Positions 2,962 to 60,182 of a stretch of DNA of 64,000 nucleotides are shown in pieces. Within the stretch, counting starts at the first letter, position 1; each line of letters opens with the position of its first letter. This stretch comes from a virus, in the IMG/VR virus record IMGVR_UViG_3300035565_000044, positions 1-64,000 of that record. One strand, given 5' to 3'. The translations under genes and the position numbers were made by a program. The notes beneath the pieces are model-generated. The model was not told where the DNA came from and made no database searches. It was given only the letters and a program-made list of their open reading frames with translations.

Positions 2962-2977
2962 TGTTTCACGTGGAACT
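2962..2977. promoter_or_regulatory. parS-like palindrome 1
   Basis: TGTTTCACGTGGAACT versus parS consensus TGTTTCACGTGAAACA. Confidence 0.75.
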
Positions 2978-2994
2978 AGCGCCAAGGGGCGAGA

Positions 2995-3480
2995 ATGTCT
3001 AAATATATAGCACAACTGAACTATACGTTCACGCCCTCGACGCGAACTGTAGATTTCAGAGGGCAGAATGGATTTGATCCAAGGTATCTTCTTGCCATAA
3101 GCAACCTTACCGCAAATCAGATCATATATACGGCTGGAATTTCCGGATTTGGATTTTCTTCTATTGACGCTACGGGCCGTATAATTACATTGCAGTATAA
3201 CACTCAGCTAATGAGCTCTAGTGATCTTCTGCAATTCCATTATGACGATCAATTAGACGCGCTTTCTGACATCAGCTCCATGATGACAGGAACCGCAGAC
3301 CCGGATAAATCTGTCAGCGGCCTTGGCGCTTGGGTTAAGGAGCCTACAGTCCAAGAACTTCTGCGTCGTCTCATTGTTGAAGTGAGAGTTGGAACAATTG
3401 TTACAGCTTATGGTCTTGGTATATCTGAGGTTGACATAGACGGTATGGTCACTGGTATGTACACTGATATGACCATATAA
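2995..3480 (+). CDS. Hypothetical virion protein
   Basis: 161 aa ORF with an N-terminal YTFTPSTRTVDF motif of the kind seen in tail-associated proteins. Confidence 0.6.
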   Translation: MSKYIAQLNYTFTPSTRTVDFRGQNGFDPRYLLAISNLTANQIIYTAGISGFGFSSIDATGRIITLQYNTQLMSSSDLLQFHYDDQLDALSDISSMMTGTADPDKSVSGLGAWVKEPTVQELLRRLIVEVRVGTIVTAYGLGISEVDIDGMVTGMYTDMTI

Positions 3481-3489
3481 TAGTGTCAA

Positions 3490-5088
3490 ATGAGCACGCG
3501 TCCCAACAAAGAACGCACCTACCTTGACCTTGGCTCCTACAATGTCACATGCGATAGGTGCGGAAAGAAAATTAAGAACACCAGCGCCAGGAAAGAATGG
3601 ACTGGCCTGATTGTCTGTGGACGGTGCTTAGACGAGCGCCATCCACAGGACTTTGTGCGTGCTCGCGTAGACCATATGACTGTTCCGGTTGCGCGTCCGC
3701 TCCCGGTATTCACATTTCTAACCACGCCAAATACCGGGATAACCGGAAGGCTCTTGACGCCACTCCCATCAGGGCCAGAAAACGTTTGGGACAATGGGAA
3801 CATAGTCAACGTCAGCGTAACGGGCGGGGCGCTGGCGTCAGTGATGGAGCTCCAGCTTTTAGGTGGGGCGAACCTGATTGCGATACAAGGGACAAATGGC
3901 TGGGAAGTTCTGCAATTCCAGAATGCTACTTTGGTTTCAGGAACGACATATAATCTAACAAAACTCCTTAGGGCAAGATACGGAACATATCAGAATATGG
4001 GCGCTCCTACTGGAGCGCTTTTTGTCTATTTAGGGCAGGCGTCTCCATCCGTATCTGCATGGATACAAACAGAACTTGGTTTGAACGTCCTATCTCAGCT
4101 TAACATATCGACGCCAATCCCACTGTATCAGCAGAGCATTATTACGACTGTTGGCGCTGGGGCTATCGTTGTCCCACTTGGCTTCACAAGAATGAAGGCT
4201 GAGGCAATTGGTGGAGGCGGCTCTGGCTCTAGCAATAATAGCTTCATATCAAGCGGTGGCGGTGGAGGTGGCGCTTACGCTGTCACCAATTCTATAACTG
4301 TAAATCCAGGAAGTGTGGTCTATACCTATGTTGGGGCCGGAGGCGCTTCACCAGCTTCGCCTCTATCTGGAAATAACGGTTATGACTCATGGGTCAATAT
4401 CGCTAACGGTTCTTCTCCAATAGATAAAACTCAAGGTTGTTTAGCTAAGGCTGGCGTAGGGGCGGTGTTTCTTACTGGAGGATTAGGCGGCGCAGCGGCG
4501 TCTTGCATTGGAGACACTGTCTATTCTGGCGGAAACGGTGGACGTGGTGGAGCGCACGGCGCATCATACTACGGCGGCGGTGGCGGCGGCGGTGGTTCAG
4601 CAGGGCCAGTTGGCGCTGGCAAGAATGGCGGTGGCGACGGCAGTGGCTCTTATGCGGGCGGCAGCGGCGGCGGCGGCGCAAATGATGGGGCTTCTACTGC
4701 TGGCGCAACCCCTGTAGCTATGGTTGGTGGTTCAGGCGGCCTAGGAGGACTAGGGACGGGCGCTGGCGTTGGTGGGCTATCTAACAGCGTAGGAACCGCT
4801 GGCACGGCTGGCGGAGGCGGTGGCGGCGCTGGTGGGGCCACTAATCCTAACAACGGGTTCCCTGGTGGTCCAGGCGGCATGGATACAGCTTTTGACTCCA
4901 CTCATGGCGCTGGCGGCGGAGGCGGCGGCGGAGGCGGCGCTGATTTGACTGTCGTCCCAACAGGCGGCTACGGGGGCAATGGCGGCGGTTACGGCGGTGG
5001 CGGTGGCGGTGGTGGATATGGATCAACCACAAATGGCCTTGGCGGGCGCGGCGCACAAGGCATTATCGTTATAACTTTCTATCCCTGA
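3490..5088 (+). CDS. Chimeric tail protein: Zn-ribbon + GTA-type tail (Rcc01698-like) segment + glycine-rich domain
   Basis: CDRCG..CGRCLDERHPQDF; GANLIAI..WEVLQFQNATLV..YNLTKLLRARYGT; long GGxGG tract ending GAQGIIVITF. Confidence 0.7.
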   Translation: MSTRPNKERTYLDLGSYNVTCDRCGKKIKNTSARKEWTGLIVCGRCLDERHPQDFVRARVDHMTVPVARPLPVFTFLTTPNTGITGRLLTPLPSGPENVWDNGNIVNVSVTGGALASVMELQLLGGANLIAIQGTNGWEVLQFQNATLVSGTTYNLTKLLRARYGTYQNMGAPTGALFVYLGQASPSVSAWIQTELGLNVLSQLNISTPIPLYQQSIITTVGAGAIVVPLGFTRMKAEAIGGGGSGSSNNSFISSGGGGGGAYAVTNSITVNPGSVVYTYVGAGGASPASPLSGNNGYDSWVNIANGSSPIDKTQGCLAKAGVGAVFLTGGLGGAAASCIGDTVYSGGNGGRGGAHGASYYGGGGGGGGSAGPVGAGKNGGGDGSGSYAGGSGGGGANDGASTAGATPVAMVGGSGGLGGLGTGAGVGGLSNSVGTAGTAGGGGGGAGGATNPNNGFPGGPGGMDTAFDSTHGAGGGGGGGGGADLTVVPTGGYGGNGGGYGGGGGGGGYGSTTNGLGGRGAQGIIVITFYP

Positions 5089-5098
5089 GGATTTAAAA

Positions 5099-5614
5099 TT
5101 GTCTAGTGGACTCCTCGCCCCTGTGATCATAACCGGATTGAATGATGGCGGCAACATCGTCATAAGCTGGGTAAGGTGCTCACGCATACCTGGAATTGAA
5201 CAAGATAATTGGTCTTCTCAGTACTTTGAAGCTCCACTTGATTCTATTGATGAAAGATATGAAGTAGACGTTATATCCCCATCAGGTTCAGTAGTCAGAA
5301 CGCTGTACGCCATAGGCTCCCCAACAGCAAACTACACAGTTGCTAATCAGACGGCTGATTTTGGAACTGTACAATCAACATATACGATAAATGTTTATCA
5401 AACCGACCAGATATTGGGCAGGGGATCATATAGGCAGGCTGTTTTGAACGTGGCTTCTCTTAAAAACTTGAAACATTATAATAATATGGTTATTGAATTA
5501 GATGTAACGATTTCAATGTCAGCTTCGTTTGCAATTGTTCATGGCGTATATCCCATTCCATTCATTTTTGGTGGAGCCCCGATATCATCTGCGCCTCTTG
5601 GCGGAAGCTTATAG
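5099..5614 (+). CDS. Tail protein resembling the extreme C-terminal domain of GTA-type megatron proteins
   Basis: ISWVRCSRI..DNW..PL..ERYEVDV..VVRTL..YT.A.Q.ADFG motif. Confidence 0.65.
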   Translation: MSSGLLAPVIITGLNDGGNIVISWVRCSRIPGIEQDNWSSQYFEAPLDSIDERYEVDVISPSGSVVRTLYAIGSPTANYTVANQTADFGTVQSTYTINVYQTDQILGRGSYRQAVLNVASLKNLKHYNNMVIELDVTISMSASFAIVHGVYPIPFIFGGAPISSAPLGGSL

Positions 5615-5628
5615 TAGGAACATAAGTC

Positions 5629-9111: not shown

Positions 9112-9501
9112 ATGTCTGTCCTTACCCCCACCTCAGCCGCTTCAGTTATAAACTGGATGACGGGGAACGCTACGGCGACAACATCGACAAGATATATCGC
9201 TATGTATGCTGGAGACCCTACGGCGGGTGGGGTTGAGCAGACGTTCAACCTCACTGGCGCCACTACCAGAACCAATATCACATCTAGCATACCATCTGCA
9301 TCTTCCGGAAGCGTTACGAATAACGTCGCCATCGTTATCACAGCATCAACCATAATAGCTTGCAGCGTTAACTATTTCGCAATCATGAGCGCCGCTACTG
9401 GCGGAATAGTGGTGGCGTACAAGCCTATAACGCTGATAAACCTTGGCGTTGGCGACTCTCTTACGATACCCATTGGAAGCTTAACTATAGCGATACCATA
9501 A
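9112..9501 (+). CDS. Small virion/tail protein
   Basis: YIAMYAGDPT motif; Thr/Ser-rich; 129 aa. Confidence 0.6.
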   Translation: MSVLTPTSAASVINWMTGNATATTSTRYIAMYAGDPTAGGVEQTFNLTGATTRTNITSSIPSASSGSVTNNVAIVITASTIIACSVNYFAIMSAATGGIVVAYKPITLINLGVGDSLTIPIGSLTIAIP

Positions 9502-9572: not shown

Positions 9573-9588
9573 ATTTTCACGTGAAACA
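9573..9588. promoter_or_regulatory. parS-like palindrome 2
   Basis: ATTTTCACGTGAAACA. Confidence 0.65.
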
Positions 9589-9650: not shown

Positions 9651-10211
9651 ATGGTAAACACTAGTCCTATATTCGGCTTACAGTATCTGTTTCAGAATCA
9701 AAGCCAGAAAGAGGTCTATGTAAATCAAGACCTTACGGTAATTGACGCCTTTCTTCAGCCTACCGTCATAAGCAACGTTGTCTATACGCCTCCGCCTACG
9801 CCTGCCGATGGGGACAAATACATCGTTCCTACTGGTTCTTCTGGAGTTTGGGCTGGTCAAACCAACGCCATCGCCATGTACAGCGCTCCAAGCATGTACT
9901 GGTCATTTTACACTCCTAAAATTGGATGGATAGTGTATAATCAGGCGTATCCAGGGCTGTTCCTATTCACGGGAACGGCTTGGACGCCTTACATACTAAG
10001 GGGAACTTTTACCCTTACCCCTAGCGCTACATCAACAGTGATTACAACATCAGCGTGTTTTACGACAAGCGTTGTGCTATATTCTCCAAATACGCCAAAC
10101 GCCGCTAACGATATGGCCACAACTTCCATCGTCCCTGCGAACGGAAGTTTCACAATAACCCATGCGAATAATGCCAGAGTGGATAGGACGTTCAAATATG
10201 TCATTGTCTAA
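9651..10211 (+). CDS. DUF2793-like protein (GTA head-spike base family)
   Basis: GLQYL..QSQKEVYVN..L..ID..PPPTPADGDKYIV..G.WAGQ..IA..WSF..P..GW. Confidence 0.75.
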   Translation: MVNTSPIFGLQYLFQNQSQKEVYVNQDLTVIDAFLQPTVISNVVYTPPPTPADGDKYIVPTGSSGVWAGQTNAIAMYSAPSMYWSFYTPKIGWIVYNQAYPGLFLFTGTAWTPYILRGTFTLTPSATSTVITTSACFTTSVVLYSPNTPNAANDMATTSIVPANGSFTITHANNARVDRTFKYVIV

Positions 10212-12171
10212 ATATGTTGCGATATGCGCCGTAATCGCACTTGGCGCTGGTTCCGCATACGGTCAAAGCAATTATCTTAAAGACACTGGCGTGTTTGGCA
10301 ACGTCAATAACACTGACTTGCCGACTATGCCCGCCAATACGCTTAAGTGCAATAATACGGCGCTGGCGGCGCAGCCTGCGGATTGTACATTTCCATCTGT
10401 GGCAACGCAGGTTGAGTCGTCTATCAATGCGCAATACAACTACATCACAGATTTTGGCGGCGTAGCTGGCGGCGTCACTGATAATTTCCTCACGCTCCGA
10501 GCGGCCTGTAACGCTTCTGGAGGCGCTAGACTATATATCCCTGCTGGAACCTACGCCGTGACGGTTCCGGCCGTCACAACCCTCTGTACGGTCCCTGCGA
10601 ACACGGTTATCGAGGGCGCTGGCAAAGGCGTCACCGTCCTTAATCTAACAGTCTCAGATACGAGCTATGCTACCGTATTTTTGCTAGCGAACGCCAACGT
10701 CGTTTTTAAGAATTTAACCATAAATGTGATTACCAACTCAACGGTTCTTACGACAATTTTTGGTCTTCAGGCTAATAATGTAAGATTTGAGAATTGCTCT
10801 TTCATCGGAAATTCCGTTGAAGGCGTCCGTGTAGGCGGAACCGCCACCAATCTTGACACGGTTAATATCATTTTTGCATCTACAGCGCTGACTGGCACTC
10901 CGATAACGATAACATTCACCGTCACCACTGGCCTGACAACGGCGCAGATCGCGAGTGGTCTTGTCAATGCTGTGAACGCCAATGCCGTGCTTACGGCGGC
11001 TGGCGTAACGGCTACGCTTGATGGTTCATTTGTTAAGATAAATCAAATAGATACGCTTATCCCTCAAGCTTCATACACAACGTCCGTCACTGGCGCCGCT
11101 ACTGAAACGCTTACAATTGGACCATCGTCTGGTCTAAATCTCGTGACCATAGGCGGAACACAGGCCGACGACTTCAGTATGTTGAACGATGATGTTACAT
11201 CTTTCAGCTATGTTGTTCTTAAGGCTAACGCTACTACAACAACTAATAATAGGTTCACATTTAGAGGCGGATTCTATAATAAAAATATAACTGGAGCATT
11301 CAATATTAACAGCCCTTCTGGAACATTCAATGGAGTATTGATTGAAGGAACTACTATTGGGTCAGTTGGAATAAATAATGCCAATGATTTGCCTATTGCT
11401 CTTGCTCATGTTACTGACGGTAGAATAATTGGAAATTATCTATATGGTACATACAATCAGAACGCCATGCACTTTGAAGAAGGGGCTAACGATCTGATTG
11501 TCTCAGGAAACGTTGTAGAGATGGCGACGGCGACGGCGCTTGGAGCGGTATACGGCGGAACATGTATGTACTTTGTAGATAACAATATTGGTGGTGCTGG
11601 TTTTAGACCCGTTAATAACGTAACCATAGCAAATAATGTCTGCACAGCCTCCACAGCAAATGAATCTGGATTTGCTATATGGCAGGCGTCTGTGAGTCTC
11701 GCTTCCCAGAGATGGGCGATAACTGGGAATGTTTTCTCTGGATTTGCAAATGGTGTGAGGACAGACGTTATCAATGGCATGACGATGACGGGTAACTACA
11801 TATCTAATAACGCAGCGAGCGGCAATGGAATCGTTTTAGGGGCTGGTGTTACGTATGCAATGGTTTCCCAGAATGTTATTAGAACATACCTTACGCCATT
11901 GACGACAGCAGCAACCCTATCTGTTATTAGAGATAACTATGGATATAACCCTGTTGGCGCAGCTACTGTGACTCCAGGCGCTTCTCCATGGACATATACA
12001 GCAGGTTCTAGTCCTGAGGACCATTATGTAAGGGGTGGAACCGTTAGCTCTATAACTACTGGCGGACAGTCGATAGCAACAACTTCTGGTTTAACTATTC
12101 ATTTGGAACCAAATGAAAGTTATGTAGTAACATATACCGTCGCTCCAGCCGTTACCAAGTCGGTGCACTAA
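10198..12171 (+). CDS. Second beta-helix tailspike/depolymerase-like protein with a signal-peptide-like N-terminus
   Basis: ITDFGGVAGGVTDN..LYIPAGTY cap; repeated I.GN/IANN beta-helix rungs; MSLSKYVAICAVIALGAGSAYG|QS. Confidence 0.7.
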   Translation: MSLSKYVAICAVIALGAGSAYGQSNYLKDTGVFGNVNNTDLPTMPANTLKCNNTALAAQPADCTFPSVATQVESSINAQYNYITDFGGVAGGVTDNFLTLRAACNASGGARLYIPAGTYAVTVPAVTTLCTVPANTVIEGAGKGVTVLNLTVSDTSYATVFLLANANVVFKNLTINVITNSTVLTTIFGLQANNVRFENCSFIGNSVEGVRVGGTATNLDTVNIIFASTALTGTPITITFTVTTGLTTAQIASGLVNAVNANAVLTAAGVTATLDGSFVKINQIDTLIPQASYTTSVTGAATETLTIGPSSGLNLVTIGGTQADDFSMLNDDVTSFSYVVLKANATTTTNNRFTFRGGFYNKNITGAFNINSPSGTFNGVLIEGTTIGSVGINNANDLPIALAHVTDGRIIGNYLYGTYNQNAMHFEEGANDLIVSGNVVEMATATALGAVYGGTCMYFVDNNIGGAGFRPVNNVTIANNVCTASTANESGFAIWQASVSLASQRWAITGNVFSGFANGVRTDVINGMTMTGNYISNNAASGNGIVLGAGVTYAMVSQNVIRTYLTPLTTAATLSVIRDNYGYNPVGAATVTPGASPWTYTAGSSPEDHYVRGGTVSSITTGGQSIATTSGLTIHLEPNESYVVTYTVAPAVTKSVH

Positions 12172-16209: not shown

Positions 16210-19200
16210 ATGGGCGTTTTAGACGAAGTCCCTAATCTCGCTAATCAGGCGCAGACTTGGTCAAACTATTGGCAGAACCAAAATAAGTGGGAATCTGAGC
16301 GCGCCGCTGGCCAAGCGCTTGCGAACGACAATATTGACCAAGCTAAGAAAGAAGCCGCAGTACGCGGCAACTTAGGTCTATATTCCGACCTCCATACAAT
16401 GCAGCAGCAGCGCCAGTTGGAAATTGGCCAGAAGATGCTTGCTGTTGTCCAATCCGCCAAGACGCAGAACCAATATCATTCCATGATTGACCTGCTTACC
16501 CAGCATGGCGTCCCTGGATTGAGCAAATATCGCGTTCCCCCTGGTGGAGATTTTGAGACAACTAAGAATACGGCGCTGGCGGAGCTTGGAACACATACTG
16601 AATATCTGAAATGGCAGCAGGAACAGCTAAAAGCTGAAACAGAACGGCGTAAAGTTAATTATCGTGGGATAATGACCGTTCCCGGCGCTCCACGTGAAAC
16701 ACCAATTGGTCCTATGGACTTACCACGAGAAGGCGGGATTACGCCTGTAACGCCAGTCCCGACAGGGGAGTCTGGGAAGCTCGTAGGAAGGCCAACAGAA
16801 GGCGTAGAAGCCACTGGCGCATTGACGCCAACAATGTCCATTGGTGATATCAGCGCCCGTCTAGGCACTGAAATGGCGAGTCGTGGATTAGCTCCTACTA
16901 CTACCAAGACTGGAGAACCCGGCCCAGATCGCAAATTTGCCTATTCTACGACAGAGGAAGGAAAACCAGTACTTGAAGAGCTGCCTGAAGGCGCTGAGTT
17001 TGAAGGGACTGGGACAAAAGCGAAGAGAAGCGATTATGAGATTTCTTTGGAACGGGTTAACGCTGATCCACTAAACGCTGGTAAATCCGAAACAGAACGC
17101 GCGCGCCTTGCTGCGGATATCGTCAAGACGATGAAGCAGAAGGATTCTTCTGATGTTCAGATGACCAAGATATTTGCTGATCCTCAGATGGCTGAGGCAG
17201 CGAATAAGCTATATGCGGCAAAGAAAGGTCCACAAAAAACTACTGCTGTTGAGCGCGCTGCTGATCGCATTAGTTCCGCGTATGAAGCGTCTCACAATGG
17301 TGAGAAGATGGACCCGTTTCAGGCGCTTACGCTTGCTAAACAGGCTATTGAGAAAGAACCTGAGGGAATACAGAAGCTTAAGATGCTCATGGGGCCAGAG
17401 CATGATAAGCTCTTAGGTGTTATTGAGGAAGACGCCAGAGCCGAAGGTAAGATAAAGCAGCCGGAAACAATGCAGATTGCGCGCGCCATACAGGATGAGC
17501 GCAGAAAGATGGGCGCAGACGTTCCGCCCATCACTGATGCAATCAGAGAAGCTGTAAAAATAACCAATAAGGGTCCTTCTACAGTTGCTCTTCTTAACTA
17601 CTTGTCTGGATTGCCAGAAAACCAGGACAAGAGCATAGAAGAAATCCAAAATCAGGTTGTCAAGCTCCAGCGTGAAACTGGAGCCGAGCGCGAAACGCGC
17701 AAGATTGGCGAGGAAGAGGGGCTGAGCACCCGCGAGGCTATCCGTGTCCGCGCCAAAGAGTCCAATGACGAACAAATGATGGCTGATATTCGTGAGCATA
17801 ATCCGAATATGACAGACGCGGAACATAGAGATATATTCCGCAAAATGAAGACTCATATCTCTGAAGTTGAAAATATAAAGAAAGAGACAGGTCTTGACAC
17901 TCTTGGTTCTATAGAAGCCAAGGAAAAAGTTAAGGCTAAGGCTATAGCTGAGGGGCGCACAGTCCCCATGGCCCTACAGACTACCAAAGAAGTTGACGGA
18001 AAAGTAGTTCCTGGAACTATGTTTATAAATCCGATAACTCAGAAAGAGACATTTGTCCCGCATCCTCCAGGCACCGGCGAAGTTACAAAATATGGAGCCA
18101 GGATTGGGAAAATAAACGCTGAGCTAGATGAAATTGAGAAAATACGTAAAGAAAATCCAGGAATGAGCGAGCTTGAAGCCATTACCGCGCGTAACAACGC
18201 TAAAATGACTTCAAAGAATCCTAGCGCAGAATTGCAGGGAATTAATGCGCTAAAGACGCTTTATCCCGATGAAAACTTTGAGCAGCTTACTAAGCGCTGG
18301 GTCGGTCTCCATGAAAAGAAGTCCGATAAGGACAAAGAAATTGCTGCTATTATGGACGCCCACCCTGGGGAAACCAAGGAAGACGCCTATGCGCGGCAAG
18401 CGGCTCTTAATAAACTCACTGTCCTGAAGAAAGATCCGACAACTGGTGAATTTAAGGCTATTCCCATCGAAGGAACAATAGAGAAGCAGAAGCTTGATAA
18501 ACCTCTTAAGGCTGGAAATGAATCTGATCTAACAAAAGTTGTCAAAGCTCTTGGTAATGATCCAAGATATAAAGATATTCCTGAAGTTGATAGATATAAC
18601 ATAGCTAAGAGTATCCTTAACCAGAAAGGATATAACGTACACATAGCTAATGATGGTAATCTTGCATTCCAGGCTGCTGAAAATAGTGAAGCTGATATAA
18701 AGAAGAAAACTGAGGACCTTAGAGAGAGGCAACTCGCCTTGCGCGAACGAGTAGCCACGGACCCATTGCTTAGCGCTCAGATGACATGGGCTAGAGAAAC
18801 TGCAAAATATAATGTTAAGACAGTAGGACGTGAAGCTCAGACTATTGTTCTTGATAACCATATTAATGGTGTAGTTGACCTTGCTGGCGGAGCTGATCCA
18901 AAGAAGGCTGAAAATCCCCAGAAGAGACGTGATCTGGAGTCTGCAATTGGTTTTCTAAATGCTGGTCTTGGGTTAAGAATATGGCGTGGAGAAATTTCGC
19001 CAACATCTAAAGTTCCTCAGGCTGCTATGTCTTTGCTTCAGTATAAGCACGCTATCCAAGCGGAGGCGGCGCGCGTCCTTAGTATGGGCATGACTGGGAA
19101 TATAGCCCATGAGCACGCTGTTGAGCTTGGGAGAATTGTGGGAGACCTGGAGAAGGCGCCAAGCGTTGAAGCCCTTCTTGCACAGGTTAAAACTGTGAAA

Positions 19201-19452
19201 GAAATAACCCACGCTATTAGAACCCTACCAATGTTGCCAGCAGACGCCTTTGAGGCACAGAAGATGCTTAGCAGCAGGCAGGAAGAGCCTGATCATGCTA
19301 AGGCCAAGTCTATGGCTGATGAAATTACAGGGAAAGATTCTGAAGGAGTTTATACTTATAAAGACGGAACCACTAGGAGATGGAAAAAAACTCTTAATGA
19401 AACTGGCGATAAAGTTGTCCCAATATGGTTAGAGGATAAAAAAGAAAAATGA
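16210..19452 (+). CDS. Large internal virion/ejection protein
   Basis: 1080 aa, charged and helical, with internal quasi-repeats; synteny. Confidence 0.6.
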   Translation: MGVLDEVPNLANQAQTWSNYWQNQNKWESERAAGQALANDNIDQAKKEAAVRGNLGLYSDLHTMQQQRQLEIGQKMLAVVQSAKTQNQYHSMIDLLTQHGVPGLSKYRVPPGGDFETTKNTALAELGTHTEYLKWQQEQLKAETERRKVNYRGIMTVPGAPRETPIGPMDLPREGGITPVTPVPTGESGKLVGRPTEGVEATGALTPTMSIGDISARLGTEMASRGLAPTTTKTGEPGPDRKFAYSTTEEGKPVLEELPEGAEFEGTGTKAKRSDYEISLERVNADPLNAGKSETERARLAADIVKTMKQKDSSDVQMTKIFADPQMAEAANKLYAAKKGPQKTTAVERAADRISSAYEASHNGEKMDPFQALTLAKQAIEKEPEGIQKLKMLMGPEHDKLLGVIEEDARAEGKIKQPETMQIARAIQDERRKMGADVPPITDAIREAVKITNKGPSTVALLNYLSGLPENQDKSIEEIQNQVVKLQRETGAERETRKIGEEEGLSTREAIRVRAKESNDEQMMADIREHNPNMTDAEHRDIFRKMKTHISEVENIKKETGLDTLGSIEAKEKVKAKAIAEGRTVPMALQTTKEVDGKVVPGTMFINPITQKETFVPHPPGTGEVTKYGARIGKINAELDEIEKIRKENPGMSELEAITARNNAKMTSKNPSAELQGINALKTLYPDENFEQLTKRWVGLHEKKSDKDKEIAAIMDAHPGETKEDAYARQAALNKLTVLKKDPTTGEFKAIPIEGTIEKQKLDKPLKAGNESDLTKVVKALGNDPRYKDIPEVDRYNIAKSILNQKGYNVHIANDGNLAFQAAENSEADIKKKTEDLRERQLALRERVATDPLLSAQMTWARETAKYNVKTVGREAQTIVLDNHINGVVDLAGGADPKKAENPQKRRDLESAIGFLNAGLGLRIWRGEISPTSKVPQAAMSLLQYKHAIQAEAARVLSMGMTGNIAHEHAVELGRIVGDLEKAPSVEALLAQVKTVKEITHAIRTLPMLPADAFEAQKMLSSRQEEPDHAKAKSMADEITGKDSEGVYTYKDGTTRRWKKTLNETGDKVVPIWLEDKKEK

Positions 19453-25943: not shown

Positions 25944-26636
25944 ATGTTGTCTAATTACAACCTGAGTTTCAGAGCTGTACTCAAGTTCGAGGGCGGATTT
26001 TCCAACGACGCCCATGATCCTGGTGGCGCTACCAATCTAGGTATTATCCAAAGGGAATACAATGCCTATCGCGACAAAAAAGGACTCGATCAACAGAGCG
26101 TTCGTCTGATAACACAAGATGAAGCGAATGAAATATATAAAATACAATATTGGGACTGGTTGCGCCTGGACGATTTTCCAGCAGGAATTGACTTCGCCAT
26201 ATTCGATGCTGCTGTCAACAATGGCGTTGGAGCCGCGCCCAAGTTTGCCCAGCGCGCTAGCAACAAAGTTAGCGGATCAAACCTCGTTGTTGACGGGCAC
26301 CTGGGACTGCTCTCTAGAGCTGCTATCTTTGCCTGTCAGCCAGAAGCATTCATCGACGCCTTCTGCGATGAGCGTCTTAGATATGACCGTGGCTTAAAGA
26401 TTTGGCGTTACTTCGGCGGAGGATGGACGAAACGCGTGAATGGCGATCCCCGTACAGGCTATCAGGGTGTCCGGGGCATCGCCAAGGCGCTAGCGTTGAA
26501 GGCGAGGGGCTTGACGCCTCCGCTAGCGCCACCTCAACTCGTTTCACGTGAAACACCAGTTGCGCCGTGGGCGTTAGGACAGGCTTTAAGCGCTGTCTTC
26601 AACTGGATTCTTGCAAGATTCGGAAGGAAGACATAA
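25944..26636 (+). CDS. Endolysin, glycosyl hydrolase family 108 with a PG-binding domain
   Basis: EGGFSNDAHDPGGATNLGI, IY..QYW, FDAAVNNG, VDG..G and FG.GW.KRV motifs. Confidence 0.9.
   Translation: MLSNYNLSFRAVLKFEGGFSNDAHDPGGATNLGIIQREYNAYRDKKGLDQQSVRLITQDEANEIYKIQYWDWLRLDDFPAGIDFAIFDAAVNNGVGAAPKFAQRASNKVSGSNLVVDGHLGLLSRAAIFACQPEAFIDAFCDERLRYDRGLKIWRYFGGGWTKRVNGDPRTGYQGVRGIAKALALKARGLTPPLAPPQLVSRETPVAPWALGQALSAVFNWILARFGRKT
26540..26555. promoter_or_regulatory. parS-like palindrome 3 (inside the 3' end of the endolysin gene)
   Basis: CGTTTCACGTGAAACA. Confidence 0.7.
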
Positions 26637-28630: not shown

Positions 28631-29638
28631 TCAGCGCTCTTCTGAGCCGATGAGCTTCCTCAAGCTCGCATTCTCTTCATCTATCTCTTTAGACATTCTT
28701 TCCTTGTTGCGCTTGTAGGAGCTTCCCGTCCTTTTCCCCCCCATCACATCGGCAGTGACAGAGCGCGCAATCCTATTGGTTTCGTTGGCCTGGATAGAAA
28801 GAATATTCCCCTCACCGAAACAATCGTTAGGCGTCCACCCTTCCAGCTTCACGCCCTCGGGAACCCGTATCATTCCCACAGCCTTGTTTTCCCTGAAGCA
28901 ATTCCAGCACCAAACCAATAACTTAGCTCTCTCTTGATCAATCATGATCTTTTTGTCAGAGCGCAGTCTAATGAAATGTTCCCTGACCCTATGGGCAGGA
29001 CATCCCTCATATCCAGGTTTCCCTGTCCGAAAAACATCGAGAAAGTTATTCGCTTCCTCAAGATATCCCTGGTGGTATCCACCGATATAATGAATGGCGC
29101 CCAATGTAGACTTGGGAACGATCTCAATCGGCGCACAGCGCTTAACGCTGCTCATAACATTGGGATGGCGGTCGAGAATGTTAAGAACTTCTTCAATGGT
29201 AAGCTTAACTTTATCCGTCTGCTCATAGGCAAAATAGGCGAGCTTGCGGAGCACGGCGCTCAGGACGTGAGTGGAGATATTCCCCTGAATATTCAAGTGG
29301 TCACGGACTGTACGCAAGCGCCCGGTATCGATAGTCATCATGGCGTCTTCTTTGATGCCATAGACAACCAGACAGAGAAACGGGGGAAGGTTAGGATTGA
29401 CCTGCAACGCCGCGAGATAGCCCGTAAGGCGATGGCGGCCGTCAATCAACTGACCATTCGTATTGAAACGAATAGGCGCCCCATTAAACTTCCATTTTCC
29501 ATCGAGGAATGAACGCATCCTTTCCGCAACCGTTGCCTCAGACAAAGGCCGGTTAGGAGCCGTAACTGCAAGATAGTCTTTCGCTAATTGGGCGTCGATC
29601 TCGATAAGTTCCATATCGATTTCATCGGTTTTCCGCAT
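28631..29638 (-). CDS. ParB-like N-terminal domain protein
   Basis: NRPLS..V..G.W..NG.PI.F..G.LIDGRHRL motif. Confidence 0.75.
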   Translation of the reverse strand: MRKTDEIDMELIEIDAQLAKDYLAVTAPNRPLSEATVAERMRSFLDGKWKFNGAPIRFNTNGQLIDGRHRLTGYLAALQVNPNLPPFLCLVVYGIKEDAMMTIDTGRLRTVRDHLNIQGNISTHVLSAVLRKLAYFAYEQTDKVKLTIEEVLNILDRHPNVMSSVKRCAPIEIVPKSTLGAIHYIGGYHQGYLEEANNFLDVFRTGKPGYEGCPAHRVREHFIRLRSDKKIMIDQERAKLLVWCWNCFRENKAVGMIRVPEGVKLEGWTPNDCFGEGNILSIQANETNRIARSVTADVMGGKRTGSSYKRNKERMSKEIDEENASLRKLIGSEER

Positions 29639-30869: not shown

Positions 30870-30954
30870 CGGTGCGTTGAGATGTGTAACGATATGTAAC
30901 GATATGTAACGATACGCCACGTTACGCCACGTTACGCCACGAGGCGAAACGATA
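30870..30954 (-). repeat. CGY-NN pentamer array 1 (17 units)
   Basis: NN on minus strand: AT TT CT GG AA GG AA GG AT TA AT TA AT TA AT AA AC. Confidence 0.9.
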
Positions 30955-30993
30955 TCTGGTGAAAGACGGAGCCAATGCCGAGCAAGCGATCCG

Positions 30994-31245
30994 TCAAGGA
31001 TTTTTATCAGCTCCGTCCTTCTGCTGATTAACGTATCCAGCTTCTTTGATCATGTCAAGCGTCTCTATTATCCCTGTGATAAACATTCCTATGCATATAC
31101 CGCTTGTGAAGCCAAATGATCCCCATATGAAGTCAAAGTACATACTTGCAATCGCAAGAATTGACATGATAGACATGGTTACGATGGCCAGTCTCCATGC
31201 TGGTTCAGTCTTGAGAAGGATAAAGAATATCTTTGTTCTTGTCAT
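30994..31245 (-). CDS. Small protein with two transmembrane segments
   Basis: 83 aa with two hydrophobic stretches. Confidence 0.55.
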   Translation of the reverse strand: MTRTKIFFILLKTEPAWRLAIVTMSIMSILAIASMYFDFIWGSFGFTSGICIGMFITGIIETLDMIKEAGYVNQQKDGADKNP

Positions 31246-31248: not shown

Positions 31249-31264
31249 AGTTCCACGTGAAACG
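31249..31264. promoter_or_regulatory. parS-like palindrome 4 (at the 3' end of array 2)
   Basis: AGTTCCACGTGAAACG. Confidence 0.7.
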
Positions 31265-31327
31265 TTGCGTTGCGAGACGGCGCAGGGCGCTGCGGCATGT
31301 TACGTCGCGAGATGTTGCGACGCGAGA
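31263..31327 (-). repeat. CGY-NN pentamer array 2 (13 units)
   Basis: NN: CT GT AA CT GA AA GC AG CC GC CT AA AA. Confidence 0.9.
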
Positions 31328-33232: not shown

Positions 33233-33550
33233 ATGACTGTTATTGGAATACAGATGCTGGAGCCAACAGCAGAAGGTAAAAAGAACCTAAGCAATAGAGA
33301 CGTTGAATTTCTTAATCATGTAGCCCAAGAGATTGTTTTTGCTCGTGGGAAATTTCCAGGAACGAAGCATATGGTTGCCGTACTCTTGGAAGAGGTAGGA
33401 GAGCTGGCCAAGGCGCTCCTGGACTATGAGAACGACATTGCCCCTAAGGACGAGATTTGGCTGGAGGCGGTTCAATCCAGCGCCATGGCCATGAGATTGG
33501 CTACAGAGGGCGTTGACGGCATGCGGTACTCCAGATACAGTAACGAATGA
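33233..33550 (+). CDS. MazG-like NTP pyrophosphohydrolase
   Basis: LLEEVGELAKALL..E..Q motif. Confidence 0.75.
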   Translation: MTVIGIQMLEPTAEGKKNLSNRDVEFLNHVAQEIVFARGKFPGTKHMVAVLLEEVGELAKALLDYENDIAPKDEIWLEAVQSSAMAMRLATEGVDGMRYSRYSNE

Positions 33551-33610
33551 TTTCTCCCCGCTCCGTATCGTAGCGTATCGTACCGCAACATACCTTGACG
33601 TAACGCATCC
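33551..33610 (+). repeat. CGY-NN pentamer array 4 (about 12 units)
   Basis: NN: TT CC TC AT AG AT AC AA AC GA AA AT; begins immediately after the MazG stop codon. Confidence 0.9.
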
Positions 33611-34371: not shown

Positions 34372-34387
34372 TTTTTCACGTGAAACA
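34372..34387. promoter_or_regulatory. parS-like palindrome 5
   Basis: TTTTTCACGTGAAACA. Confidence 0.65.
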
Positions 34388-38323: not shown

Positions 38324-38764
38324 CTACAACTTCTTTAGTACGTTAAGGATGCATCTGCCAGTATCAGCTCTTGTATGGGGATATGCGCCAAGGTTGTACT
38401 GGTCATCTGCATAAAGCCAATCGCACAACTTTTCGGTAAAAGCGGTTTTATCGTACACGCCTAGAGTGCTGCGTCCGTACTTGTAGGAGAGACGTCCAAT
38501 TTCACCGAAATCAGGGTCAACAAAACACTTGTGCTCAACTGAAACTCTGCTCTTACCTCTAATAAACGCATACGCTAAGAAAGAGCTACGCAACGCAGAC
38601 TTCACCACGCGTACTCTGTGATCGTGAAGGCCGAAGTTAAGTTCACTGCGTTTCTCATGATTTTTGAAACGCCCATGAACTGTGTATTTCTTTTCCTCAC
38701 ATCTAATGATGCGCGCCTCTTCAGAGAGGCTTTTTATTTTAATCTTAAGATAAACTTTAGACAT
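38324..38764 (-). CDS. Phage hypothetical protein
   Basis: LKIKIKSL.EEARIIR.EE..L..HR..LAYAFIRG pattern; RBS AGGAG. Confidence 0.75.
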   Translation of the reverse strand: MSKVYLKIKIKSLSEEARIIRCEEKKYTVHGRFKNHEKRSELNFGLHDHRVRVVKSALRSSFLAYAFIRGKSRVSVEHKCFVDPDFGEIGRLSYKYGRSTLGVYDKTAFTEKLCDWLYADDQYNLGAYPHTRADTGRCILNVLKKL

Positions 38765-38781: not shown

Positions 38782-38797
38782 TGTTTCACGTGGAACA
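38782..38797. promoter_or_regulatory. parS-like palindrome 6
   Basis: TGTTTCACGTGGAACA. Confidence 0.8.
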
Positions 38798-38858: not shown

Positions 38859-38934
38859 TGGTAGCGGGAGCCAGATTCGAACTGACGACCTCCTGGTTAT
38901 GAGCCAGACGGGCTTACCTCTGCCCTATCCCGCA
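38859..38934 (-). tRNA. tRNA-Met(CAT), initiator-like (1:72 mismatch)
   Basis: Cloverleaf; anticodon loop CTCATAA; T loop TTCGAAT; encoded ACCA; U1xU72. Confidence 0.9.
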
Positions 38935-41803: not shown

Positions 41804-41819
41804 TGTTCCACGTGAAAAT
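41804..41819. promoter_or_regulatory. parS-like palindrome 7 (at the 3' end of array 7)
   Basis: TGTTCCACGTGAAAAT. Confidence 0.65.
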
Positions 41820-41820: not shown

Positions 41821-41880
41821 CGTTGCGTTATGATGCGGAGAGATACGATGCGCCACGTGACGTCAAGTTGCGCTGCGTCA
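41821..41880 (-). repeat. CGY-NN pentamer array 7 (12 units)
   Basis: NN: GA AG AA GA CA GG AT AT TC AT AA AA. Confidence 0.9.
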
Positions 41881-41887
41881 TCCGATT

Positions 41888-46259: not shown

Positions 46260-46319
46260 TAACGTTTCGCCTCGTAACGCATCATAACACGCCTCTCCTC
46301 TTCGCACCATAACGTAACG
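46260..46319 (+). repeat. CGY-NN pentamer array 8 (12 units)
   Basis: NN: AA TT CT AA AT AA GC TC TT AC AA AA. Confidence 0.9.
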
Positions 46320-46333
46320 TTTCATGTGAAACA
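46318..46333. promoter_or_regulatory. parS-like palindrome 8 (at the 3' end of array 8)
   Basis: CGTTTCATGTGAAACA. Confidence 0.65.
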
Positions 46334-48512: not shown

Positions 48513-48528
48513 AGTTTCACGTGGAGCA
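48513..48528. promoter_or_regulatory. parS-like palindrome 9
   Basis: AGTTTCACGTGGAGCA. Confidence 0.55.
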
Positions 48529-48797: not shown

Positions 48798-48937
48798 CAG
48801 TGGAGTGGCTAGATTTCCGATTACAACGATAGCTCAGTTGGTAGAGCAACAGACTTCATATCTGTAAGTCGTAGGTTCAAACCCTACTCGTTATCCCGTA
48901 AGGGGTAATCCATCGTAAATCGTTTTTCCCTCCACTG
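48798..48937 (+). ncRNA. Y-RNA-like gene 3 with an embedded canonical-order cloverleaf (anticodon TCA)
   Basis: Closing stem CAGTGGAG/CTCCACTG; same scaffold; cloverleaf at 48823-48894. Confidence 0.85.
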
Positions 48938-49000: not shown

Positions 49001-49055
49001 TTACGTCTCGCTTCATAGCGTGTCGTGACGTGCCGCAACTCACCGTAACGTAACG
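49001..49055 (+). repeat. CGY-NN pentamer array 9 (11 units)
   Basis: NN: TA CT TT AG GT GA GC AA AC AA AA; directly upstream of the Ro60 RBS. Confidence 0.9.
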
Positions 49056-49075
49056 TCTTGTAGAAAGGAAAGAAA

Positions 49076-50482
49076 ATGGCTCGTACTAATACTAGGACCA
49101 GAGCGCCACGCCCTCTGACGCATGAAGGCGCTCCAGCCGATAGGATCACAAAAGAGCAAGAGTTGCGCCGCTCTGTGTCTTGCTGCCTGCTTTGGGAGAA
49201 TGAATTCTATGAAAGCGGTGAAGACATTGCTAGCCGCATCAGGCGTCTCGCGCTGGAATGTTCTCCTCAATTTGTGTCTAATCTTGCTATTGATGTTCGC
49301 AATCGTCTTCACCTTCGTCACGTTCCTCTTTGGCTGCTTTGCGCTTTGGCTAAAACTGGAACTGGAATTCCGGGGCTTGTGGGGAATACTGTAGCACAAA
49401 CCATCCAACGCCCAGACGAAATTCCTGAGCTTTTGGCGCAGTATTACAAGGCCAATGGCGTTGCTATTAAGGATAAGGGCGGAAAGATCAACAAGATCAA
49501 GATGCCTAAGCAATTCAAGAATGGTATCGCGCGAGCCTTCACTAAGTTCAACGAGTACTCGCTGGATAAGTGGAACAAAGACGGCGATATCTCCTTGAAA
49601 TACGCCATGCGCGGCGTCCATCCAAAGCCAAAGGATGAGGCTCAGGCTCAGTTGTGGGCTAAGCTTTTGGGTAAGGAAGATAAGGAAACTGGCAAGTCTC
49701 AGAAGCTTAAGACGGCAGATACAGTCATGTCCGCCTTGAGCGCTGGAAAAGAAAAGAAAACAGCAGAAGATAAGAAAACTGTTTTCGAGCGCCAGTTGCG
49801 TGAAGGAAAGATTGGATATTTCGCGTTATTGAAGAACTTGCGCGGGATGGTTGATGCTGGCGTTGACAGGCAGCTCGTTATTGACGCATTGCGCGCTAGG
49901 AAGGGAGACAAGGGAATTTTGCCGTTTCGCTATGTTTCCGCTGCGCGGGCGGCGCCAACGTATGAACCATATGTTGATGAAGCTCTTCAGCACGCGATTA
50001 AGAGCAGCAGGGAACTTCCAGGGCATACTTGGGTGCTTGTTGACGTTAGCGGCTCCATGGACGCCAGTATCTCTGCAAAGAGTGATCTTAGCCGGATAGA
50101 CGCCGCTGCGGCTCTGGCGTCTCTGATTCACGGAGACAGAACAGTTATTACGTTCAGCAATGAAATAAAAGTTGTTCCAAGTCGCCACGGTATGGCTGGA
50201 ATTGAGGCTATTCTCAAGAGCCAGATTCATAGCGGTACTGAGATGGGAAGGGCCATAAAGTATGTGAATGATCGCGCCAAGCCCCAAGATCGGCTTATCG
50301 TGATCACTGACGAACAGAGCGGGGATGTCGTCCCTGATCCAGTTTGCCAGAACGCATACGTCATAAATGTTGCGTCCTACCGCAATGGCGTCAGTTACGG
50401 CCATGGATGGAACCATATTGACGGTTGGAGCGAAGCCGTGATAGATTACATTCATGAGCATGAGGCTACGCTTAAATTGTAG
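49076..50482 (+). CDS. rsr: Ro60/Rsr TROVE-domain RNA-binding protein with a C-terminal vWA domain
   Basis: THEGAPA, LLWENEFYE, LRHVP, QRPDE, F.EY.L.KW, HPKP, ALLKNLR, LPFRY, DVSGSM, ITDEQ and GWSEAV motifs. Confidence 0.93.
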   Translation: MARTNTRTRAPRPLTHEGAPADRITKEQELRRSVSCCLLWENEFYESGEDIASRIRRLALECSPQFVSNLAIDVRNRLHLRHVPLWLLCALAKTGTGIPGLVGNTVAQTIQRPDEIPELLAQYYKANGVAIKDKGGKINKIKMPKQFKNGIARAFTKFNEYSLDKWNKDGDISLKYAMRGVHPKPKDEAQAQLWAKLLGKEDKETGKSQKLKTADTVMSALSAGKEKKTAEDKKTVFERQLREGKIGYFALLKNLRGMVDAGVDRQLVIDALRARKGDKGILPFRYVSAARAAPTYEPYVDEALQHAIKSSRELPGHTWVLVDVSGSMDASISAKSDLSRIDAAAALASLIHGDRTVITFSNEIKVVPSRHGMAGIEAILKSQIHSGTEMGRAIKYVNDRAKPQDRLIVITDEQSGDVVPDPVCQNAYVINVASYRNGVSYGHGWNHIDGWSEAVIDYIHEHEATLKL

Positions 50483-50496
50483 TTTCATGTGAAACT
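50481..50496. promoter_or_regulatory. parS-like palindrome 10
   Basis: AGTTTCATGTGAAACT. Confidence 0.6.
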
Positions 50497-52746: not shown

Positions 52747-53277
52747 ATGAAAATAGAAGACGAAGACGGTAAGTATAATTATTACGCCGATATCTATGTT
52801 ATACGTGATTTGTTTTCCAAGGTGGAGATTGGGGATACAATAACGTTTTCTCAAATAGAAGAAGTTATGAAGAAACCCGTTGACGGCTCTGTCTACTCCG
52901 CTATTCATCAGGCAAAGATTTTGCTTGAAAGCGAAGATAGAATGGTGTTTGGCAACGTGCGCAGCGTAGGATACAAGCGGCTAACCGATAGCGAAATTAT
53001 AGAATCTTTCGAGCTCGACCGCCGCCGCCTCCGCCGAAGGGCTCAAAGGGCTGCGCGCAGATTGACTAATATAAATGACTACGCCAGCCTCAGCAATGTG
53101 CAGAAGATAACGCATCAGGCGGGGCTAGGCGTCCTAGCGGCAATATCTAGAGTGGCTATGCCTAGGACGGTTGAGGACGTTAAGAAGTCCGTAGCTACGC
53201 TGGAGGCTCCTACTAAGTCAACTCATGCCCCGATTGGGAAGATTTTGGATATCATGAGGGGAAACGTAAAAGATTAG
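52747..53277 (+). CDS. Putative DNA-binding accessory protein downstream of the RAMP gene
   Basis: GDTITFSQIEE and F.NVRSVGYK.L (wing-like), followed by an Arg-rich helix. Confidence 0.65.
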   Translation: MKIEDEDGKYNYYADIYVIRDLFSKVEIGDTITFSQIEEVMKKPVDGSVYSAIHQAKILLESEDRMVFGNVRSVGYKRLTDSEIIESFELDRRRLRRRAQRAARRLTNINDYASLSNVQKITHQAGLGVLAAISRVAMPRTVEDVKKSVATLEAPTKSTHAPIGKILDIMRGNVKD

Positions 53278-53291
53278 TTTCACGTGAAACG
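53276..53291. promoter_or_regulatory. parS-like palindrome 11
   Basis: AGTTTCACGTGAAACG. Confidence 0.75.
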
Positions 53292-56122: not shown

Positions 56123-56138
56123 CGTTTCACGTGGAACT
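56123..56138. promoter_or_regulatory. parS-like palindrome 12
   Basis: CGTTTCACGTGGAACT. Confidence 0.7.
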
Positions 56139-56661
56139 ATTCATCAACCTTGAAAGGTTTAGACCAAACGTCTCGCTCAAAGCTTCTGGATAGGGCGTCA
56201 ACTAGATTGGCGTCTACAGGACGGTCATCGCTATGGTTATGTTCCATGCTGGTTAGGGAAACGCCGTCATTAATCATCTCCGCCGCCGCTTCTTCGAAGC
56301 TAACCTTGCACTTTTCCCCCTTACGTGGCGTGTATGTCTCTAGCTCTGGTTCTTCTCCCAAAAGATATCTGGCTCTTTCAGGAGTTATGATTTCATGGGC
56401 TAGATGACACTGACTAAGCGGTGGAAGGTCAATACTCTCTACAGGCGTGCGCCCATCCTCCCAGTGCAGCCCCTCAGCTCCACATGGCTCTGTTACCTTG
56501 CTGTGGTAGATCACCGAGCCATCTGTTTTAAGCGCGACACGGACCACAGAAGCGTGAGCATCATTTCCATTAATGGCGTATACAGCGAGATTACACTTGC
56601 AGTCTATGCCATATGGTTGCCCATGTACACAATTTGGGCAAGTCTTTTTCATTCCGTCCAT
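56137..56661 (-). CDS. Hypothetical Cys-containing protein
   Basis: C.NC.H..C..CG.EG..WE pattern. Confidence 0.6.
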   Translation of the reverse strand: MDGMKKTCPNCVHGQPYGIDCKCNLAVYAINGNDAHASVVRVALKTDGSVIYHSKVTEPCGAEGLHWEDGRTPVESIDLPPLSQCHLAHEIITPERARYLLGEEPELETYTPRKGEKCKVSFEEAAAEMINDGVSLTSMEHNHSDDRPVDANLVDALSRSFERDVWSKPFKVDE

Positions 56662-56674: not shown

Positions 56675-57007
56675 CTACTTAATAGGAAACATGCGAGCTA
56701 TTATTTCTTCGTCTGTTTCCTTCTCTATCGCTTTAGTAGCGCTACGCGTCTTTGCTATTTCTGCAAATGCGCGTATGTCTCCTAGATGCGCAATCCTCTC
56801 CACCTCCATCAGCGCGTTACAGATGTAAGGCGCCAGCGTTACAAAATCTTGGTATTCTTCCATTCCGTACATGCGAAATTCTGAATTTATTGGACCTTGA
56901 TAGTATTTGTAACACTGAGAAATATATTCAATGGCTACGCGCGCAACGCGCATATGATGCTCGTTGGGGGTAACGCTCTGAATTGGCTCAGCTTCTTTGT
57001 GTTTCAC
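56675..57007 (-). CDS. Hypothetical early protein
   Basis: RBS GAAAGGAAAG. Confidence 0.6.
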   Translation of the reverse strand: MKHKEAEPIQSVTPNEHHMRVARVAIEYISQCYKYYQGPINSEFRMYGMEEYQDFVTLAPYICNALMEVERIAHLGDIRAFAEIAKTRSATKAIEKETDEEIIARMFPIK

Positions 57008-57066
57008 AGTCTTTCCTTTCGTACAGGGAAGGGCGAGCTAGCCTAAGCTAACCCGCCGTATTGTTT

Positions 57067-57681: not shown

Positions 57682-57742
57682 ATTAGTCTTTCCTTTCGTC
57701 AGTGACGCCCTTGGCGCCTGTGTTAGGGTATGATAGAGAAAC

Positions 57743-57952
57743 TTAATTATTAGTTACCTTTCCGCTTATTTTCACCTCGCCTTCCGCTATTTCGCGAAGC
57801 GTGCTTACATCTACGTCAAAGCCAACAACGATACGCAAGTTATTGTTATAATTGCGTAATACGTAGTCCCACGCTTCGATTGCGTTCTCTAAGCCAAACT
57901 CTTTAACGCGCGCACGGTCAACATCATCAGTTTCGAATATATGAATTTTCAT
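57743..57952 (-). CDS. Hypothetical early protein
   Basis: RBS GGGAAAG. Confidence 0.55.
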   Translation of the reverse strand: MKIHIFETDDVDRARVKEFGLENAIEAWDYVLRNYNNNLRIVVGFDVDVSTLREIAEGEVKISGKVTNN

Positions 57953-58204
57953 TTCTTTCCCTTCTCGTATCGTTCGATCTTAGCGCGGTTAGCAGCTCTA
58001 AGCGATGCTGCACGTATGGCTTGGGTTACGCCTGTGCGCCCGTTAGACGCTAGCGCCACTCTCAACGACAAATCTATTGAAATGGCCATGCGTTCGTCAA
58101 ACACCTTTGCGAATTTGATATCCATGCTACACCCCTTCTAAAACCGCCTACGTTGGGCCGTGGCGGCTTTAAGAGAGGGGCAGGCTCTACACCTGCCCAT
58201 GATG

Positions 58205-59215: not shown

Positions 59216-59295
59216 AGTCTTTCCTTTCTTGAGTTAACGTCTACACGCTAGCAGCCACAGCGGCGCCATGGCTGCTAACATTTAGGCATTATCTC

Positions 59296-59529
59296 TTATT
59301 CCCATCCTTCCGGATTCTGCGCCTTTTCCGCTGTCATAACGTCAATAATATTCTGCAACATGCTTATTAGCAGTTTAATCTCGTCAATTTTTATAGGTAT
59401 TGATTGAGACTCATGCGAAAATTCATTTGCTTCTAGATACGCGCATTTCCTATAATTTTCGTATGAAATTGAAATGTAGTCGTCATAATATGTATGAAGT
59501 GTATGTTTTACTTCATCCTTTCCTTTCAT
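59296..59529 (-). CDS. Hypothetical early protein
   Basis: ATGA coupling. Confidence 0.55.
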   Translation of the reverse strand: MKGKDEVKHTLHTYYDDYISISYENYRKCAYLEANEFSHESQSIPIKIDEIKLLISMLQNIIDVMTAEKAQNPEGWE

Positions 59530-59777
59530 CTTTTCCTTACCTTTATCGAATTTCCAGGCGAGAAAAAGTTCTGCTCAAACTTGGGATGCTTCCAAGCTGT
59601 TTCGCGCCTCATAAGGTTCTCTGCGCTTTTCTTCGCTTGCGCCGCAGTCTCTAATACGCCCCATGCGCCGCCTACGGACTGCTTAGCCAAAACTTCGCCG
59701 CTAGCGGTTATCTTTATGGCGTGATACGTCCATTTCCAATATGAACGCAGTAGCGCCTTTTCCTTAGCTGACAGCAT
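59526..59777 (-). CDS. Hypothetical early protein
   Basis: RBS GGAAGGA. Confidence 0.55.
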   Translation of the reverse strand: MLSAKEKALLRSYWKWTYHAIKITASGEVLAKQSVGGAWGVLETAAQAKKSAENLMRRETAWKHPKFEQNFFSPGNSIKVRKR

Positions 59778-60153
59778 TGTCCTTCCTTTGCGCCGCCTTC
59801 AACATCAACTCAGCGAAAAATTCTTCCATATTTTTCCTATATTTTTTCTCTTCTCTCACTTTCCTTAAGCGCTGCGCCTTTGTCGCTGGCGCCTTCTTAT
59901 ATTCTCCCCTAACAGCGTCGTCTAATTCCTTTAATAAATAGTTAATTAGCTTATGCTGCTCATCATGCCAAGCCTGATACTCCACATTATTTTCAGCAAT
60001 AACGCTTGCGAGTTGCCCCACTTCAGGCATGGGTTTATATGGGTTGTCGTAATGGTGGAGACTGGCGCTTGTGAGAATTGATTTGATATCTCTGTATGGT
60101 ATCCCTGATATGGTAACGTTTCCGTCCTTATGGAGTTTGACGCGTAGGCTCAT
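59764..60153 (-). CDS. Hypothetical early protein
   Basis: RBS AAGGAAAGGG before MSLRVK. Confidence 0.6.
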   Translation of the reverse strand: MSLRVKLHKDGNVTISGIPYRDIKSILTSASLHHYDNPYKPMPEVGQLASVIAENNVEYQAWHDEQHKLINYLLKELDDAVRGEYKKAPATKAQRLRKVREEKKYRKNMEEFFAELMLKAAQRKDNAVS

Positions 60154-60166
60154 ACCCTTTCCTTTC

Positions 60167-60182
60167 CGTTTCACATGAAACA
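60167..60182. promoter_or_regulatory. parS-like palindrome 13
   Basis: CGTTTCACATGAAACA. Confidence 0.65.

Follow-up and report, generated by a model that had tools for sequence, protein, structure and literature searches.

Parsing of the palindromes

The stretch analysed here (the window) covers the opening 64 kb of one 100,522-bp virus record in IMG/VR, IMGVR_UViG_3300035565_000044, which comes from an uncultured phage, and dispersed along it are copies of a 16-bp palindrome that fits canonical chromosomal parS, the site bound by the partition protein ParB. A preliminary description of the window had listed thirteen such palindromes, had called them chromosomal-type parS and had placed them mostly at gene boundaries. 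A scan for TGTTTCACGTGAAACA allowing up to three mismatches, with 100 shuffled sequences as the control, returned every one of the thirteen at its exact coordinate and added another at 16686, making 14 matches in the window against 0.19 expected, a number reached by none of the 100 shuffles; the core TTYCAYRTGRAA gave 12 matches in the window against 0.11 expected. The genome as a whole holds 21 matches at up to three mismatches and 13 at up to two; those beyond the window lie at 64166, 69578, 71090, 75638, 81939, 93324 and, a weak one, at 99610. Of the 21, about 19-20 are credible sites. The matches within the window are as follows.

2962..2977: TGTTTCACGTGGAACT; intergenic, with a G+C-rich hairpin 6 nt before it and a start codon 17 nt after it
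9573..9588: ATTTTCACGTGAAACA; in the gap between the genes at 9112-9501 and 9651-10211, inside a doubtful 53-codon open reading frame (ORF); probably intergenic
16686..16701: CGCTCCACGTGAAACA; three mismatches, one half-site perfect, within the ORF at 16210-19452; possibly a chance match
26540..26555: CGTTTCACGTGAAACA; at the 3' end of the GH108 endolysin gene, the site being retained at the homologous place in a metagenomic relative, L129
31249..31264: 3 nt upstream of the start of the gene at 30994-31245 (minus strand); retained in L129; adjoins a period-5 (NNNCG)n array
34372..34387: between two facing terminator hairpins, the half-sites serving as both T-tails
38782..38797: TGTTTCACGTGGAACA; 17 nt upstream of the start of the gene at 38324-38764 (minus strand), below a tRNA-Met gene
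41804..41819: in a divergent region upstream of the DnaB operon; adjoins a period-5 array
46318..46333: CGTTTCATGTGAAACA; after the primase gene, with a TTGACA hexamer 10 nt downstream
48513..48528: in a divergent region; the TTGACA promoter of the Ro60 operon follows 9 nt downstream
50481..50496: between convergent genes, overlapping the Ro60 stop codon, with a strong terminator 20 nt further on
53276..53291: AGTTTCACGTGAAACG; overlapping the stop codon of the gene at 52747-53277
56123..56138: at the stop of the gene at 56137-56661 (minus strand), followed directly by a minus-strand terminator
60167..60182: CGTTTCACATGAAACA; between a minus-strand terminator, whose T-tail enters the site, and the ribosome-binding site of the gene at 59764-60153 (minus strand)

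The half-site matrix of the set is N-G-T-T-(T/C)-C-A-C and the full matrix is N-GTT(T/C)CAC followed by GTG(A/G)AAC-N, of which the 14 central positions are the same as in the canonical chromosomal site, TGTTNCACGTGAAACA. Symmetrised counts for the half-site run from an open first position (T 21, A 11, C 8, G 2) through G (35/42), T (39) and T (42) to T (34) or C (8), then C (41), A (41) and finally C (38) or T (4), and at position 5 and its mirror T/C alone was found. The variation among the sites, that is T/C at position 5 and a central CATGTG or CACATG, is shared with Bacillus phage phi29 and with phi29-like contigs, and the variable positions are those known to vary, so that the reading of the motif as chromosomal parS holds down to its tolerated variants. 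No conserved bases were found in the flanks of the 21 sites and, because these flanks are unrelated, the sites appear to have arisen independently and not by duplication, the exceptions being 31249, 41804 and 46318 with their adjacent period-5 array. Arrays of this (NNNCG)n kind occur at 30890-30966, 31263-31314, 33544-33610, 41821-41882 and 49004-49065; the three sites that adjoin arrays (46318 in inverted orientation) share the extension ACGTTGCGTTATGATGCG, and the pairs of array and site may be composite elements near replication genes. The hexamer CACGTG occurs 24 times genome-wide, 16 of these within the parS-like sites, and the other 8 compare with about 22 expected on a rough estimate from base composition; it may be avoided outside the sites.

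Placement and spacing

Genes were called with a simple, conservative codon-usage caller that leaves 20% of the genome non-coding, and 17 of the 21 sites fall in that fraction (binomial P 3e-9), which bears out the placement at gene boundaries. The sites are also more evenly spread than chance would have them, with a coefficient of variation of spacing of 0.51 for the 21 sites against 0.93 for uniform placement. The 19 strong sites taken alone give 0.70, and random draws from the non-coding gaps average 1.41 (P 0.0006). Their immediate surroundings are varied: five precede a start codon by 3-18 nt (31249, 38782, 60167, 64166 and 71090), two precede a TTGACA hexamer by 9-10 nt (46318 and 48513) and five adjoin terminator hairpins or are fused with them (2962, 34372, 50481, 56123 and 60167). 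A fixed geometry relative to sigma-70-type promoters was considered and is ruled out, as the distances between site and promoter are not constant.

Conservation and gain of the sites

The relative L129 shares 72-88% nucleotide identity with this phage over the aligned segments, and both sites that can be compared, 26540 and 31249, are retained in it. At 31249 the core is intact in L129 whilst the left flank has been scrambled by an indel and substitutions. Substitutions within the L129 sites are confined to outer base 1 and base 16, to the T/C position 5 with its mirror and, in a single case, to core base G2, a base that is variable among this phage's own sites too. Retention in L129 and density together suggest that the sites are under selection.

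The wider portal family was examined through 79 loci (1.02 Mb) gathered regardless of the motif, in which sites were counted at up to two mismatches. Only 2 sites were found in the 1.02 Mb, as against 13 in the 100 kb of this phage, a difference in density of about 66-fold, and five isolate genomes had 0-1 sites each. The idea that the portal clade as a whole is enriched in parS is ruled out by these counts, and the trait was, to judge from them, gained in a narrow lineage.

A scan of IMG/VR with the exact core gave at least 119 loci, and 17 of those listed share the portal family. Thirteen contigs, of the same broad portal family as pelagiphage HTVC023P, carry one perfect 16-mer TGTTTCACGTGAAACA each; the outer T and A are present in them too, the search having demanded the inner 14 bases only. 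A further contig, IMGVR_UViG_3300032247_000416, has five perfect 16-bp parS copies in about 900 bp (10535-11462), a centromere-like cluster. It lies close to the end of the contig, a 12-kb phage fragment in which ParB_N was not found and whose portal shares 27% identity with that of this phage.

Genome and phage setting

The main landmarks of the genome, in addition to the sites, are the following.

0-27 kb: tail and lysis module
25944-26636: GH108 endolysin
28631-29638 (minus strand): orphan ParB/Srx-fold protein of 335 amino acids, phrog_5931 (function unassigned), with a DGRHRL motif
89.9-99.4 kb: portal, major head protein and terminase large subunit, the last split over two ORFs

Replication and other genes encode ERF, an AAA ATPase, DnaB, a replication initiator, a Toprim primase, a Ro60-like protein and a Rha/ANT antirepressor. 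Six-frame searches of the complete 100,522-bp genome gave no match to ParB_N, HTH_ParB or the ParA-type ATPase domain PF13614, in keeping with the earlier failure to recognise a ParA in the window, and no match to a tyrosine integrase. The direct terminal repeat of the record is only 123 bp long and may be an assembly overlap.

A megablast search against phages found no isolate with closely related DNA. The portal shares 24-46% identity with portals of uncultured freshwater phages and of phages of Alcaligenes, Pelagibacter, Roseobacter, Caulobacter and cyanobacteria, with genomes of 40-65 kb, and from the GH108 endolysin and the hosts of these portal relatives the host is probably Gram-negative.

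A number of other features were observed. The terminase large subunit consists of a Terminase_6N half (89919-90818) and a Terminase_6C half (90890-91576) with 72 nt between them, whereas in another relative, L004, the halves are separated by 857 nt, a difference that points to an intron, intein or inserted gene in the lineage of this phage. A Rha/KilAC antirepressor-type gene is present at 87029-87832 despite the lack of a detected integrase, and it may be left over from, or point to, a persistent lifestyle without integration. A tRNA-Met gene lies at 38859-38934 on the minus strand, and a tRNA-like gene with a TCA anticodon (tRNA-SeC according to ARAGORN) lies at 48823-48897, upstream of the Ro60-like gene at 49076-50482.

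The ParB/Srx-fold protein

The ORF at 28631-29638 had been described as ParB-like by an N-terminal motif only, and this is true also at the level of the fold. A Pfam search gave no match and HTH_ParB was not found in it. An AlphaFold model built from 40 homologues has a predicted local distance difference test score (pLDDT) of 90, and its top Foldseek matches are ParB-CDP, KorB, Noc and sulfiredoxin, at E values of about 0.03 only; residues 5-108, the N-domain, are similar to KorB, PadC and Srx, and the remainder is helical with no helix-turn-helix of the ParB type. The protein is thus predicted to be a ParB/Srx-fold orphan in which no DNA-reading domain of the ParB type can be recognised. The roles of this fold in phage proteins are varied (PMC12704722; PMC13229309). 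The idea of a ParB-activated thymine dioxygenase (PMC13229309) was considered and rejected, there being no Tet_JBP in a six-frame search of the genome.

The family to which this protein belongs is large, an exhaustive HMMER search finding 13,236 representatives at E values up to 0.001, mostly viral, with a conserved DGQHRL motif. Its profile found no member in the motif-bearing IMG/VR loci listed (at least 119), which is weak evidence as these are partial loci, and four contigs that do encode homologues contain no parS-like site. Family and motif occur together in the phage's own lineage (L129) only. No parS-like site adjoins the gene itself, and the protein is an unlikely candidate for the binder of the sites.

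Which protein reads the sites, and to what end

The same scan applied to phi29 as a positive control gives five matches (0.15 expected), four of which are TGTTTCACGTGGAACA and one of which lies between the stop codon of gene 16 and the bidirectional terminator TD1. Two later papers, PMC2731898 and PMC9437464, cite Meijer et al. 2005 for the binding and use of the five phi29 parS sites through the host protein Spo0J, and PMC2731898 reports that the sites serve segregation into the prespore. The reading that we favour, tentatively and on the strength of sequence and analogy, is that the palindromes of this phage are likewise true parS, read by the chromosomal ParB of the host and not by a phage protein, and that the leading effect would be a hitch-hiking of the phi29 kind. 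Summed over all the functions that such binding might serve, host chromosomal ParB is probably the binder; we infer this because the sites match parS including its tolerated variants, because neither a canonical ParB nor a ParA was found, because the orphan family does not co-occur with the motif and because phi29 provides a precedent.

The preliminary description had proposed that host ParB and SMC are recruited to position or partition the phage DNA, or else that ParB is titrated so as to arrest host segregation and division. Host ParB stands as the best candidate binder in the light of the phi29 precedent (PMC2731898), but sequence alone cannot split positioning or partition from titration. 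That precedent had been missed, and it makes the idea less new. The Caulobacter and MipZ setting in which the proposal had been framed has no basis, the only hints to the host being the GH108 endolysin and the fact that Proteobacteria and cyanobacteria are the hosts of portal relatives.

A number of points weigh against reading the sites as host-bound parS. Possession of a canonical ParB by the host is an assumption, and the phage itself encodes a ParB/Srx-fold protein that could be the binder. Several sites adjoin ribosome-binding sites or a -35 box, positions that operators would fit too. The rationale of phi29, which is spore entrapment, probably does not apply to a host that is seemingly Gram-negative and non-sporulating. 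Finally, the site at 93324, upstream of the portal gene, is missing from L004, which indicates turnover.

One alternative retains host ParB as the binder but takes the selected function to be host takeover or the shielding of phage DNA, not partition. Because every new copy of the genome adds some 20 sites, the host origin would lose its ParB and, as a result, SMC loading and ParA control, so that segregation and division would be blocked, or else the phage DNA would be wrapped in a ParB condensate. One parS suffices for plasmids, and the number and even spacing of the sites in this phage go far beyond the needs of partition; neither the integrase nor the ParA that would suggest maintenance was found in the genome, and titration follows arithmetically if ParB binds. 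Titration may be the selected effect, but we know of no phage that uses ParB titration and no sequence feature tells takeover from hitch-hiking. Moreover phi29, at a similar density of sites, is reported in PMC2731898 to use them for segregation into the prespore. As a selected function, takeover or shielding is rather unlikely. A ParB condensate on the approximately 20 sites that positions, compacts or shields the phage DNA and strips ParB and SMC from the host origin, in a Gram-negative host and with no integrase found in the phage, is an improbable outcome, and if it were true the strategy would be distinct from the spore entrapment of phi29 and one not described for any phage.

The main rival, although itself unlikely, is that the sites are operators or loading sites for a phage-encoded protein in a genome-wide network like that of KorB and its OB operators. 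The binder would then be the ORF at 28631-29638 or an unrecognised DNA-binding protein, and the likeness to parS would reflect shared ancestry or mimicry. The ORF does offer a ParB-type fold, but the match is confined to its N-domain and HTH_ParB is missing from it; with more than 13,000 family representatives none appears in the motif-bearing loci listed, and the four contigs with homologues are free of sites. Its gene has no site nearby and the promoter geometry is not constant, whilst for an unrelated protein the coincidence would be considerable, a 14-bp palindrome taken at random matching parS only about once in 16,000. Very unlikely indeed is the proposal that the palindromes are parts of terminators or another signal at the RNA level, or the target of an unrelated host regulator or of a restriction-modification system (core CACGTG), for although five sites adjoin terminator hairpins or are fused with them and half-sites act as T-tails at 34372, most sites have no hairpin, the 16-mer alone forms only a weak 5-bp stem, 14 bp are conserved in the exact parS pattern, and sites also precede ribosome-binding sites and sit in divergent regions.

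If host ParB does read the sites as parS, established ParB biology allows a sequence of events to be proposed. After injection, cytidine triphosphate-bound ParB dimers of the host would clamp at each of the approximately 20 sites and slide outwards, and with a site every 5 kb or so at the ends of operons, where RNA polymerase traffic is lowest, the 100-kb genome would become a ParB partition complex. By analogy with phi29 the phage DNA would be coupled to the ParA/SMC segregation machinery of the host, and it would be positioned and inherited with the host origin during delayed lysis, as in a carrier state, starvation or dormancy. Once replicated, phage DNA would far outnumber the host parS sites and ParB would be drained from the host origin, an unavoidable second effect. 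As to sporulation, Spo0A boxes are not enriched in this phage (4 copies of TGTCGAA, where 6.4 would be expected) and CtrA boxes are about as frequent as chance predicts; because there is no such enrichment and the host is probably non-sporulating, the purpose must differ from spore entrapment.

Binding by host ParB would have several consequences. The use of a host centromere system by a phage would no longer be a curiosity of phi29 and sporulation, since it would have had an independent origin in a large unrelated phage, probably of a Gram-negative host. The genome, with 20 parS on 100 kb, would provide a natural substrate for the behaviour of the ParB clamp, ParA and SMC on foreign DNA, and it could show whether phages persist through, or arrest, host divisions via ParB. 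When phages are annotated, the presence of canonical parS would not by itself point to a plasmid lifestyle or to a ParB of the phage's own.

Comparison with known systems

In chromosomal ParABS (ParB/Spo0J-parS; PMC8494293) the sites are few and clustered near oriC. The palindrome of this phage is the identical 16 bp with the same degenerate positions, but here the sites are evenly spread over a virus genome that encodes neither ParA nor a canonical ParB.

Two mobile elements offer further parallels. KorB, encoded beside IncC/ParA on the IncP plasmid RK2, reads the operator OB through its helix-turn-helix domain (structures 8QA8/8QA9), and the plasmid has 12 OB operators. As in this phage, a palindrome of 13-16 bp is dispersed over a mobile genome at varied distances from promoters and the element encodes a protein with a ParB-fold N-domain; the phage differs in having no HTH_ParB or ParA and in that its site is the chromosomal parS of hosts and not an element-specific sequence. 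The linear plasmid-prophage N15 reportedly carries four dispersed centromere sites of the sopC type, and so also has centromere palindromes scattered in a phage genome, some in promoter regions. However, N15 has its own SopA/SopB and is a stable plasmid prophage, and its sites are not host chromosomal parS.

The closest likeness is to phi29. In the literature searches phi29 was the only phage for which host-type parS is described, and the multi-site dispersed contigs among the IMG/VR matches listed were all phi29-like (phi29 capsid, connector, gp16 ATPase and tail knob). The phi29-like contigs carry 1-6 sites, mostly intergenic, and ParB_N was not found in the records of the six of them searched. 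Both phages have dispersed canonical 16-bp parS, mostly between genes, at comparable density (one site per 3.9 kb in phi29, one per 4.8 kb in the present genome), and both are without an integrase, a ParA of their own and a canonical ParB. They differ in genome size (19 kb in phi29, 100 kb here), in number of sites (5 as against about 20) and in portal and capsid lineage; the present phage is unrelated, does without terminal-protein replication and carries the orphan ParB/Srx-fold gene. With host ParB as the probable reader of its sites, it would represent a much larger form of the phi29 host-parS strategy in an unrelated lineage, and is not categorically new.

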